A DNA stretch of 64,000 nucleotides. Source: Lytechinus pictus. Lineage: Eukaryota. The notes beneath the pieces were generated by a model that worked only from the letters and a program-made list of their open reading frames with translations, was not told where the DNA came from and searched no databases. The stretch spans positions 28,522,001 through 28,586,000 of the forward strand of contig NC_087245.1 in assembly GCF_037042905.1 (NCBI RefSeq). The letters run 5' to 3'. A program made the position numbers and the translations under genes. Each line of letters starts with the position of its first letter. The first letter of the stretch is position 1. Of the stretch, positions 15,084 through 19,613 are shown piece by piece.

Positions 15084-18000
15084 CTACACACAGTTTTGTT
15101 TGTGCATTGGTAGGACTAGTGAGCATGTGGCAACTATGGAAACTAGTGTTAACCCTAAGTCCCAACTGATTTGGTTTAACAGTTCCACGGTTTCTTTATG
15201 CTCACAAAACACCTTAAAACACTATAAATTAAAATCTGAGTTGCCTTTACATTTTTTTTTTCTGTTTTATCTTAGAATGCATTCTCAGTTGTTATCAGCT
15301 CAGCTGGCAAGAAGAAGAATAAGAAGGATGGAGCATCTCAGAGGTCATTGCCCTTTACACAGAGTGCCGTCAGAGATGAGAATGTGTTCATTTCATACAC
15401 AGCACCAGACAAACAGATAGAACAAGGGTAGGTATAATACACATCAAATTACACATGAATATATATATACGAACCAGTGAAATTGTGTCACTAGTAACAG
15501 AAGCGTATCCAGCATGAATTATGACAAAGAAATGTATGGGCCCATGAACAAGTATAATAGAGTGACTATTGTCCCCAGACAATTGGGCCTGTGAAATGTA
15601 GGATTGCATGAAACTGTAGGATCTGATGCTAGATACGCACCCGATCCGAGTAATACATATCAAATTAAACATTAATATTAAAAAGTGTATCAAATAGCGA
15701 TATTGTGTCACTAGTACCACATATCAAATTATGCACAAATATAAGAATTATACTAACTCATGATATTGTGTCACGTAAGACATTCATTGACATATCCAAG
15801 CATTTCTTGGGGACTGTTCCAGCCAGTCTCTAAGTAAGGTGCTCTCAATGCTTTGCACGCTATAGTGTAAACTCATTTGTTATAATGGTAAAAACAATAA
15901 CTTGTTCTTCATGATTTTCACTAAAAAGTTATATCAAAGCTCTCTTTGATACTGATACAAGAAAAAGAATGCTTAGGGAATAAAAATGAAAGTATTCAAT
16001 GTAAGATGATGAAAGATGTAACAATGTGATAGCTGTACACATTTCGTCAATTTTAGTTTTCACGTAAAACAATATTTGTCTCCCTTTTCCATATTTGCGG
16101 TAAAATGATACAGGTTGAGCATCGAGAGTAACTTTGAGCAGCAAGCAGCGGGAGCAGTCTTAGATTTTACACAAGATGAATCCAAAGAAATGAGAAAACA
16201 ACAACAAAGAAAGAAATGGTGAGGATGGTCATTGTATTCTAAAACTGAAACGTGGTGGTAATGTTTACCTGATTGCTAACAAAACATGAATACCTGTTAT
16301 GAAACAGCGGACCAAAGGCTTGAGGTCCTCGCTGACGGACATATGTAAAGAGTATTATTAGGGCACTAGCACACCAAGTTGAAATTAAACCTAGGGCACT
16401 AGAATCCGTTACCCCCGCTCTACCGACTTGGCTATCAAGCCTCTTGGTATAGGACTTATGTTCAATTTAATTAATAGAGAAAAAATAATAATAAGGATGA
16501 GAGACTGGCATTGTAAAGATGAAAAACTTCTCTTTTTACTTCTGAAAGTAAATTTACATGCAATGTTTTATAGGTTTCTTCTCTGTTCCTATTGTCACTT
16601 TGGCTCTCGTTCTCTCCCACTCCGCCTTTCCTCTTTCATTTTACTGTAGAGATGTATGAATGTTATATAACTCTTTTCTTTTTCAACCTAGGGAGAGGAA
16701 AAAGAAGAAGTTTGTTGGAGATGGAGGGAAGGACGGCAAGCAGAAGAAGATTATGACGGAGAGTGGAAAATACATCTCGGCATCTTACAAGAAAAACATG
16801 TATCCTTTACAACTCGGGTTTGATTTAAATTCTGGTTTGAAGTTGTGGTTTAATTACTGTATGGAGAGCCAATCGTGACACAATTCTCAAACAATATGTT
16901 CAATTAGTCAGCAAGATTGGGGTTAAATTCATTCATAGCTGTCTGGGAATGATAATTCAAGTATTTTCCTTTACAATTTAAACATTGGGAATAACAAAGT
17001 AGAGATGAGAATCATACAATGAAAACAGATTTTTGGCCTCTTCGCCTTCCCAAAAATTTAGTGCCAAATTAGACCATGACCTAAGTTAGACTAGACTTCA
17101 GAATAGGGGCTCTACATGTAGCATTATTATGTAAAGTTCCCAGGTTTCTGCAATACGGAAAACAAGAAAAAAAATCCCAGAATTTGGGAAGGACACAGAA
17201 TTCACAGATTTTTCGCAGAAGACACAGTGTTTCAAGTAAAAATATTTACATTATGAAAAAATTACACTTAAAAACAGCAAAATCCAATAAAACAAAAACT
17301 ATGCATAAGTTGAAATCTTCCCATGAATCCTGTTGCACAAACAAAGTCAAGAAGAAGAGGCAAAAGGCTACAGATGCAGAGGAGAGGGCTCTATCTCCCA
17401 TCCCACCCCATCCATTGCTGTCCTGGGCTGTTGCCAAGTCTCCAACCCCACATCCTGAAGCTGCTGCTGCTACTGTAGATGAGGTCTTAGAAGAGGTCTT
17501 AGAAGACTGCAGAGGGGCATTTGATAACACTTTCTACTGGAGCCAAGGGGATGGGCAGGGGCGAAGAAGGGAAATCAACAAACCAGCAGCAAGAGAAGAA
17601 GCAGAGGATGGGCTTCACCTTCTCACCAGAACAAGAGGATGCTTTTATTTTTTAGCAGGTGTTACTGCATTTAGTACTTCAAAACATGAAATCATAAATG
17701 AAATGCAGGGGCCAGCTATCATAAGTAACATGCTTGAAAGAATAGCAGTTGTATTTGAGATGAATATTTCTTTATTCACATTTGGAAGATCTGTCTTTAC
17801 ACCAAGTCTATTGTTTTGTCTTGCCATGCTACGGAACCAGCAGGTGAATTGCACAAATGGGTGATGGGGTGTGCTGCATGTTGCCTTCTTCTGAAGCTCT
17901 CTCGGGTGCCTGGACTTCCATAGTGTCAATAAGGTTTGAGGGGTCTCCTCAATTATCTTAACAGACAAAATAATCATCTCAGTGTTTCTAAGGGATACCC

Positions 18001-19613
18001 CCGCTCCCTCTCCCAGCTCCCATACCCCGCCTCTATTTGAAGGGTATGACAGCCACTTCCACCCCGATAGGTGTGGCTGGTATGAAAAGATAAAGGGGAA
18101 GCGTGTGGTGACAAGGCACCCTGTAGAGATTGTTGTTGATTATTGTTTTGCAACCCCAAGTTCTATATAGACCCCAGCTTTCTCTCCAGGGTGCTGGCCC
18201 ACAGCCCCCCATACACGAAGAGGGATGGGTGCTGGAGGCTTGCGATAGGAATTCACCCTAAACAGGCTAGTCAGTATACGGAGGAACAGTGGGAGCGCTT
18301 AGTTGCGTTGCTCCAAAGCCCCTTAGTCGTAGGATAAAGAGAGATTGGCTTTGACTTTCCGGTCGACTCCCAGTGGTGGCCTGACCAGGAGGCGCTCTGT
18401 TTGCGACTCCTTGGTCTTGGTCAGTTGATTGCTATGTTGTTGGTTGGCAGCAACTGTCCCATATCTTTGGGGAGTCACAACTACATTTGTACCTCTCCAC
18501 AGCTACACTGGAAATGACTCACACTTGTCATTTTCTGCCACATTTATTTAGTACACATATTGTTTGATATGCACAAATATGTACAGATCATTAGCATCAA
18601 CAGACTAGCTTTCTTCCTATTGACGTTGGCCTGAGTTCGAACAGCTGAAGAAATTATGAATTCAGTTCAAATTGACTGTATTATATCATTGTTGCATGTT
18701 GATTATTTTATAGAATTGCCCTTCTAGGAAATGGAAATCTGTTCATTGACCCTTGACATTATTGTGATACTATCAGATACAAAGAATGGTTACAGAAGAG
18801 TAAGGCAGATTCTCGGGATCACCATCACTCTGACAGTGAGGGTGAGGATGGTGAGAGTGTCAGGTCGGGTTTCAACAAAGGTAAGGGCATTTCATCATTT
18901 TATGAATTTACAGAAGTTGAAATTTGGAGTCTGGAGATGCTAAAATCTCATTCTGAAATCCCTCTGCGGATGCAAAAAGGTGTTAGGAATAAACAATATT
19001 TTGCAATGATCGGTGGTCATAAATTTAGCTAGCAGTGATTAAAGGTGTGTACATTAAATTTTGAAACTCATTTGGGATATTACCAGTACCATTATAAGAA
19101 ATTAATTTTCCTGATATCAACTTTATTTGAAGGGTTTTAAGATATAAGACTTGGGATCATATCAAAAAGTGTTTTGTCTGCAGTTTTCACCGACTGACTG
19201 ATCCATTCAAAAGCAAATATTTGTGTAGGTAAATTGATTACTGTATAAAACAAATTTGTATCTTTTTACCTTTAGGAGGCATCACAGGGAACAGAATCCG
19301 CTATGGTTCCAAGCGAGGGGGCAAGCACTCAGGCACCAAGAGGAGAGGTCGTCATGAAGACACCGGCACAGAGAAAGGTCAGGGGTCAAAGGGTCATCAT
19401 GGGGGTGAACTCCGGAGGAAAGAAGAGATCCTGAAGCAGAGGAAGATCAAGGGGCGCAAACAGGAGCAGAGTAGACCCAGGGCACAGCGACAAGGGGGGC
19501 GTGGTGGTGGTGGTGGTAGAGGTAGGGGGAGGGGTGGAGGTAGGGGCGGAGGTGGTAGGGGTGGATTCGGGCGTGGCGGTGGTCGGGGAGGTCGTGGCAA
19601 AGGCAGGAGGTGA
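3795..19613 (+). CDS. DDX54: ATP-dependent RNA helicase DDX54 (Dbp10 ortholog), 16 coding exons
   Basis: Exons with GT..AG ends and consistent phases: 3795-3918, 4211-4281, 5263-5451, 7935-8122, 9606-9789, 10287-10418, 11481-11691, 11990-12130, 13340-13561, 14008-14081, 14657-14833, 15276-15427, 16114-16218, 16692-16799, 18777-18880, 19276-19613 (2520 nt, ends TGA). The translation has [14 protein letters not shown] motif [49 protein letters not shown] and the DBP10 C-terminal [12 protein letters not shown] motif. The ATG at 3795 directly follows an acceptor AG, so an upstream exon probably exists that I could not locate. Confidence 0.95.
5608..7845. repeat. intronic tandem repeat, three ~340-bp units (first unit interrupted by the pogo-like element)
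   Basis: TATCTCCTATTAAC...GGAAAGACCAAATTATG...AAATAAATAATTTT units start at ~5610, ~7185 and ~7527. Confidence 0.85.
5776..7009. mobile_element. non-autonomous pogo/Tigger-like (Tc1/mariner) element
   Basis: Perfect TIRs CCGTAAGTAACGGTGTATTAACCGCACC / GGTGCGGTTAATACACCGTTACTTACGG, TA on both flanks, subterminal repeats of GTGTA(T/A)AACCGCACC. Confidence 0.85.
8647..9465. mobile_element. Tc1/mariner-type MITE with ~340-bp TIRs
   Basis: AGTGCGTCCCAGAAAAAACGAA...TTCGTTTTTTCTGGGACGCACTG, TA flanks, long near-complementary arms. Confidence 0.85.
12863..13140 (-). mobile_element. tRNA-derived SINE
   Basis: On minus: A-box-like TGGTCTAGTGG, B box GGTTCGAATCC, a central GACCCAGGTGAGGTAAATGGGTACC block and a (TAT)n tail. 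A near-identical copy is at 32427-32693. Confidence 0.85.
15037..15080. repeat. (TA)n microsatellite
   Basis: Uninterrupted TA run. Confidence 0.95.
16811..17110. mobile_element. truncated MITE, same family as 51194-51504, opposite orientation
   Basis: TCGGGTTTGATTTAAATTCTGGTTTGAAGTTGTGGTTTA matches the reverse complement of the 51.5 kb end; the right end is ACTTCAGAATAGGGGC. Confidence 0.75.
17982..18425 (+). pseudogene. decayed TatD-family (TATDN2-like) nuclease fragment inside the U12 intron
   Basis: Reads YDSHFHPDR (HxH), then a frameshift near 18143, then FCNP...[12 protein letters not shown]...[19 protein letters not shown]...[12 protein letters not shown]. This is the TatD motif order HxH, GxHP, GExGLD, Q. 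One frameshift, one stop, C-terminal half absent. Confidence 0.75.

Follow-up and report, generated by a model that had tools for sequence, protein, structure and literature searches.

A decayed TatD nuclease gene fragment of a Ty3/Gypsy retrotransposon clade in an intron of a sea urchin DDX54-like gene

A TatD-like fragment lies in an intron of a DDX54-like gene

The window analysed here is a stretch of 64,000 nucleotides from Lytechinus pictus (contig NC_087245.1, positions 28,522,001 to 28,586,000); coordinates are those of the window unless a locus handle precedes them. In an intron of a DDX54-like gene, a short and broken TatD-like sequence was found at 17938..18416 on the + strand. DNA identity, matches to the Pfam family PF01026 and trees identified it as a decayed fragment of the third open reading frame (ORF3) of a TatD-bearing Ty3/Gypsy element, comprising the end of an N-terminal linker and the first half of the TatD domain. 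A previous reading of this DNA, the sequence-only reading, had described an orphan TatD-like nuclease cassette at 17340..18425. Homology to relatives was limited to 17938-18416, and the supposed cassette is a remnant of 479 bases. It is no orphan either, as its relatives are the ORF3s of a clade of retrotransposons with long terminal repeats (LTRs).

Inspection of the translation showed the TatD motifs in the predicted order on the + strand. DSHFHPDR (18048..18071) represents the HxH metal-binding motif of Group II TatD proteins, the D, H, H and D of which were invariant in 12 of 12 aligned ORF3s. FCNP, AIGIHPK, VVG*REIGFDF and QEAL followed downstream in a second frame. The frame switch lies within the TatD domain (18130..18150), where indels were seen in comparison with a natural intact copy, and a premature TAA (18335..18337) stands just 5' of the E-x-G-x-D motif. 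The frameshift and the stop that had been proposed were thus both present, but more indels were found at 17971-18037. As for the Leu-rich stretch said to precede the TatD part, RGLLNYLNR belongs to the homologous part and the remainder falls outside it. The downstream piece matched PF01026 at E 6.2e-06 (26.2 bits, cut-off 27), whereas the DSHFHPDR piece alone gave no Pfam match. No RNA reads were found on the fragment, and only short chance pairs were obtained as terminal repeats around it. LTR, gag and pol of the nearest family gave no match within the window. Its assignment to the element rests on homology and trees.

Intact relatives are third genes of Ty3/Gypsy elements

DNA identity of the fragment to eight element copies was 76-78% over most of its length; pieces on C13 came closer, at 89-91%. 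The fragment had 13 further DNA matches in the genome, six of which fell within copies of one family, and its amino-acid identity to element ORF3s was 79-83%. The sequence-only reading had anticipated intact relatives; these were found as ORF3s behind gag and pol between LTRs. The element layout is LTR, gag with helix-hairpin-helix (HhH) and CCHC motifs, pol, TatD ORF3, polypurine tract and LTR. Pfam searches yielded HhH and CCHC on gag, protease, reverse transcriptase (RT), RNase H and integrase (IN) followed by a PHD finger on pol, and TatD on ORF3; this domain order was checked on two own and two foreign pols and on three gags.

One family was represented by six copies spanning ∼11.7-12.3 kb, with LTR matches of 371-384 bases that were 99.5-100% identical. 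Its members encode a gag of ∼730 codons, an overlapping pol of ∼1450 codons and the third frame; one of the six copies has lost part of this frame through an internal deletion. An intact ORF3 of 441 codons matched PF01026 at E 4e-29 directly after the integrase core (rve) and PHD. Eight more families had LTR pairs with 94-100% identity and element lengths of 10.5-15.7 kb. The copies are thus young, and the group as a whole is large and was active recently. Target duplications of 4 bases, read by eye, flanked five of six copies of the first family and were present in seven of the eight other families. A primer-binding site (TGGCG..) begins 1-3 bases after the 5' LTR, for which tRNA-Ser is presumably the primer, and a G-rich tract precedes the 3' LTR. 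The LTRs of two families (L025:4543-4913; L089/L113) end in TA...TA instead of TG...CA, and the L025 family has a leader of ∼2.6 kb before gag.

The genome-wide count of copies and flanks proposed by the sequence-only reading gave 62 PF01026 matches at 52 loci, a lower bound, as the window piece was not among them. By hand count, 37 of the 52 loci had gag/pol upstream on the same strand, two were of the form LTR-TatD-LTR and two were unclear; ten had no pol in the fetched stretch, and one was the intron-containing host TATDN2. Between families, the TatD domains were 33-50% identical and the pols 52-73%. From these results, the fragment and its intact relatives almost certainly represent the third gene of a clade of TatD-carrying Ty3/Gypsy LTR retrotransposons.

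Derivatives with TatD between LTRs and without gag or pol were observed at L033:2225-6956 and L035:3464-6258 and at a contig joint on L202 (run X6). Such derivatives arose on at least three occasions, and their junctions inside ORF3 all differ; one derivative is frameshifted.

The ORF3 protein retains the TatD active site

All eight full ORF3s tested scored above the PF01026 cut-off over the whole domain, with 75-127 bits. The seven ligands H, H, E, H, H, E and D were kept in nine of nine pol-linked families (the pol-linked group of this alignment included the C17 LTR-TatD-LTR copy, which has no pol) and in all seven foreign contigs placed in the tree. The predicted model of the TatD domain had a pLDDT of 90.8; the top 16 fold ranks were all TatD proteins, and the template modelling (TM) scores of 0.68-0.73 to TatD structures indicated the TIM-barrel amidohydrolase fold. 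Because the metal ligands are conserved, ORF3 is very probably an active two-metal nuclease. No membrane stretch was found in any of eight ORF3s (maximum hydropathy over 19 residues of 1.0-1.5), and four of the eight carried basic runs resembling nuclear signals.

Seven of 11 compared ORF3s, and most of the foreign relatives, share a further domain of 135 residues, which is absent from the subfamily of the window copy itself. It contains invariant C, C, H and H residues resembling a C2H2 finger and a P-x-N-x-P-x-x-L-x-H-x-R motif, and the example at L087:6393-6791 gave a confident predicted model. The domain matched no Pfam family; atlas matches did not exceed 0.82, no Foldseek match at E 0.001 was obtained in PDB or BFVD, and the best VIA-align Z was 3.3. 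This lack of matches does not demonstrate a new fold.

Descent, selection and loss of the TatD gene

TatD trees were built from 71 and 48 rows (LG+G4, quick search), 19 partial or redundant rows having been removed before the 71-row tree. The element TatDs stood on one side of a branch with 95-97 SH-aLRT support, host TATDN2s formed another group and bacterial proteins a third, and the window fragment grouped with the element ORF3s at 99-100% support. Also considered was whether the window piece could have come from a host TATDN gene as a processed pseudogene. The fragment is intronless and broken, and the ORF3 protein of the six-copy family carries the public name 'putative deoxyribonuclease TATDN2 [Lytechinus pictus]', as would suit such an origin. 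Against it stand the amino-acid identity to element ORF3s, a tblastn search of the window with host TATDN2 that gave no match at E 0.01, and the rejection of a tree constrained to join the fragment with urchin TATDN2 (p-AU 8e-7 in the approximately unbiased test). A TATDN2 pseudogene was thereby refuted, the DNA match between fragment and elements leaves no room for TATDN1 or TATDN3, and a host origin of the window piece is scarcely conceivable. The sequence-only reading was therefore correct in preferring mobile-element cargo to a host copy: a TatD match was obtained, and the fragment is not a single copy nested in a host TATDN clade.

An origin of the captured gene in the TATDN2 lineage of the urchin, modelled by joining all element TatDs with urchin TATDN2, was only weakly rejected (p-AU 0.044).

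In eight of ten unsaturated TatD comparisons between subfamilies, dN/dS was 0.07-0.18, and one integrase comparison used as a control gave 0.26. The TatD ORF3 is thus under purifying selection, as judged from codon divergence. For the window fragment, dN/dS values of 0.10 and 0.18 were obtained over 89 codons, implying that most of its divergence arose while its lineage was alive. The copy itself is functionless and an ordinary dead relic, probably what deletions have left of an older subfamily copy. TatD also descends broadly together with pol: three of six splits were common to both trees, no conflict exceeded 63% in both, and the distances were correlated (Mantel rho 0.43, p 0.014).

A search with the IN-PHD tail gave 41 matches and nine new contexts, of which one had TatD, two had the ORF3 N-domain, three were truncated, and three (L243, L244 and L245) were copies of one family that had kept IN-PHD and had no ORF3. 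This family was sister to a TatD-bearing family at 98%, indicating that TatD was lost there and is hence accessory. Survival of three copies after the loss would be expected if TatD were a neutral passenger, captured once and merely carried along. The active site is nevertheless intact across families with only 33-50% identity, and dN/dS is mostly below 0.2; a neutral passenger is very improbable, as the selection signal goes most of the way to refuting it. About 2 kb of non-coding sequence after pol is shared by the copies of the ORF3-less family.

Expression and possible role of ORF3

In all nine families, a strong putative splice acceptor (16-19 of 20 pyrimidines followed by CAG) lay 26-348 bases past the pol stop, as against three of 81 pol windows, although the control compares coding pol windows with non-coding DNA, which flatters the signal. 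An ATG followed within 81 bases of the acceptor in nine of nine families, and in family A the start is the ATG at offset 0. Because of this acceptor and of donor-like sites in the LTR or leader, ORF3, like env, is likely translated from a subgenomic message produced by splicing.

Human TATDN2 degrades the RNA strand of R-loops (PMC10711561; this and the other PMC sources are cited from excerpts), while TatD enzymes are known as 3' exonucleases and AP (apurinic/apyrimidinic) endonucleases (PMC10085689). By analogy with TATDN2, the nuclease encoded behind pol may be an accessory enzyme that clears RNA:DNA hybrids. Translated from an env-like spliced message, it would remove the RNA strand of hybrids, whether these are R-loops formed where copies are transcribed or remnants of reverse transcription. 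Insertion yield would thereby be raised, yet ORF3 would not be essential. This role is proposed tentatively, although we consider it the most likely one and prefer it to both DNA repair at integration and counter-silencing. That the window holds a dead ORF3 fragment of a Ty3/Gypsy clade whose TatD likely serves as an accessory, hybrid-clearing enzyme is, taken as a whole, a reading in which we have high confidence.

Besides the flattering control, several results weigh against this reading. RNase H motifs were intact in every pol checked, so that the need for another enzyme clearing hybrids is not obvious. The first Foldseek match of the TatD model was TATDN3. TATDN2 appears to be the sister and nearest characterised relative of the element TatDs, but only provisionally, because TATDN1 and TATDN3 are absent from the trees; exon-wise genome search recovered neither of the two host genes. 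Two of the ten TatD comparisons gave dN/dS of 0.47-0.49, and the ORF3-less family persists without the enzyme. Donor-like sites (8/9 or better) were present in the LTR or leader of only seven of nine families. Each run gave 11-16 reads over 10 kb, many of them antisense; none showed a splice joint into ORF3, but such coverage is too sparse to judge.

Action on DNA, in which TatD would serve as an AP endonuclease or 3' exonuclease that repairs or trims cDNA or integration gaps, assumes the same origin of the gene. Such activities are reported for TATDN1, TATDN3 and three Escherichia coli TatDs (PMC10085689), and the DNA-binding type of HhH in gag, the PHD finger on integrase and the nuclear-signal-like runs in half of the eight ORF3s would be in keeping with it. 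ORF3 is, however, not joined to Pol, so it is not evident that it travels with the integration complex, and the element clade adjoins TATDN2 in the trees; a DNA role is accordingly regarded as rather unlikely. Again with the same origin, ORF3 might act in trans for any copy as a counter-silencing factor that degrades small RNAs of the host or nucleic acids by which host sensing is triggered. Its position in the env slot with a likely message of its own, the recurrent LTR-TatD-LTR derivatives with their different junctions, and the additional 135-residue domain, which could bind a host partner, all fit this proposal. The derivatives may be plain deletions, though, and one is frameshifted; we hold counter-silencing to be improbable.

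Relatives in other genomes and lone copies

A profile search (29 matches among 7990 scored) gave named relatives from three other urchins and one clam and many unnamed ones, a taxonomic range that is a lower bound. Ten contigs bearing relatives came from two bins labelled Sedimenticola (L233-L242). Upstream of ORF3, eight of them had the IN-PHD end, one had an RT piece and one had neither; three carried a full gag-pol-ORF3. These contigs, and likewise their 'TatD family hydrolase' entries, are probably contamination from a host animal. This animal was likely a mollusc, because one of the contigs groups with the clam protein in the tree. A metagenome scan kept 80 loci. A single close relative was among them, and its contig is too short to include pol; the remaining 79 scored far lower, and the 18 that were translated or placed in trees look bacterial. 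Viral contigs gave two weak matches. The long-branched TatD proteins P0017, P0018 and P0022 adjoin the element clade in the tree.

The ligands were changed in both lone TatD ORFs. One, of 1180 codons, lies at L091:1216-4755 (C4, ∼20.31 Mb) without gag, pol or LTR. It has three active-site changes and shares 89% identity with a protein from another urchin species over 1137 columns. It is a candidate domesticated copy; a decayed copy (L118) adjoins it. The other is an open pair near the ends of C18 and C15 (L086:1210-3534 and L207), 97% identical, with one ligand changed and without pol or a clear LTR pair.

Comparison with known systems

The nearest described case is that of Juno and Vesta, LTR retrotransposons of bdelloid rotifers whose ORF3 encodes a DEDDy 3'-5' exonuclease (PMC5408684). 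They are likewise of Gypsy type with an enzymatic, non-env third ORF encoding a nuclease with intact catalytic residues, and the copies in the elements form a clade of their own apart from host enzymes. The fold differs, being DEDDy there and a TatD amidohydrolase barrel here. For Juno and Vesta, evolution within the genome was reported not to deviate significantly from neutrality, whereas dN/dS between subfamilies was mostly below 0.2 here and the TatD gene has been kept across most of an old clade. The HhH-gag, the IN-PHD and the additional ORF3 domain are further features of the present elements, and the excerpts of PMC5408684 contain no mention of TatD.

With the Group II (HxH) TatDs, including human TATDN2 and TATDN3 and E. 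coli YcfH and YjjV (PMC10085689, PMC10711561), the element ORF3s share PF01026, HxH and the barrel fold, and with TATDN2 also the same seven ligands and a long low-complexity N-terminal extension. They differ in being intronless, located within LTRs and in a clade apart from host TATDN2. Errantiviruses, the env-carrying Gypsy elements (PMC13524379), similarly place a third ORF behind pol, preceded by a splice acceptor that is a putative one in the present elements; the present ORF3 is a TatD nuclease without a hydrophobic stretch and not a membrane glycoprotein. According to the excerpts of that source, no env-carrying elements were reported in echinoderms, and nuclease, DNase and PHD are not mentioned in them; the echinoderm gag-pol element list in its supplementary file 3 may include these families. 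The excerpts of surveys of Troyka (PMC12440569) and of mollusc LTR elements (PMC6238403) held no matching passage. A review of accessory domains names, in the part available, only chromodomain, DnaQ-like exonuclease and helicase (PMC6338049), and in that of a squid paper TATDN2 occurs only in a figure legend (PMC6962438). No literature on TatD in retrotransposons was found in a search that lay outside Repbase, Dfam, GyDB and most subscription journals.

We suggest, as a proposition for which the chances seem evenly balanced, that an old, undescribed Gypsy lineage of animals (echinoderms and probably also molluscs) captured a TATDN2-like nuclease and, over hundreds of millions of years, has retained it as a dedicated accessory that is joined to a zinc-finger-like domain matching no known fold and that processes RNA:DNA hybrids or disarms host silencing; that at least one copy has been re-domesticated by hosts; and that many public 'TATDN2' genes in these animals encode this protein. 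The elements add a nuclease class to the short list of enzymes captured by LTR retrotransposons, through a capture that is old, selected and clade-wide. The sister family without TatD is a natural control, and the role of non-env ORF3s becomes testable in a laboratory sea urchin. TATDN2 gene counts and annotations in urchins, and probably in bivalves, are inflated by transposon genes. For biochemistry, the elements offer a set of diverged TATDN2-like enzymes and the 135-residue domain.

The host gene and other features of the intron

The exon pieces of the flanking gene matched DEAD, Helicase_C and DBP10CT (three of four pieces had a Pfam match), so the gene fits a DDX54-like identity. The fragment lies in its GT-AG intron at 16800..18776 (+), with DBP10CT on the upstream exon. 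Introns of U12 type are marked by the donor GTATCCTT and a TCCTTRAC-like branch site. Here the donor GTATCCTT was followed by the branch-like site ACCCTTGAC at 18749-18757 and an AG end, and the splice joint 16799-18777 was covered by nine reads from two of three RNA runs. The minor intron of DDX54 named by the sequence-only reading was thus borne out, as was the GC-richer island in AT-rich surroundings: GC content was 51-52% at 17340-17640 and 17938-18416, and 33-39% in the rest of the intron. No RNA reads fell within the intron interior (17041-18767), while the adjoining exons were covered ∼4-5-fold in the better runs. The location of the fragment in a U12 intron looks incidental.

An open frame of 259 codons at 17085..17864 (+) lies outside the TatD element. 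It corresponds to the low-complexity upstream ORF named by the sequence-only reading. Its sole match in the genome was itself (one of seven scored candidates), and it had no Pfam match above the cut-off, no similarity to the fetched element loci and no reads. It was rejected as a real gene and is probably due to chance. A high-copy repeat of ∼300 bases, unrelated to the TatD element, occupies 16811..17110 (no strand assigned; 31 of the 41 listed matches, 69-73% identity), and a 55-base dispersed repeat, also unrelated, lies inside the 259-codon frame at 17694-17749.

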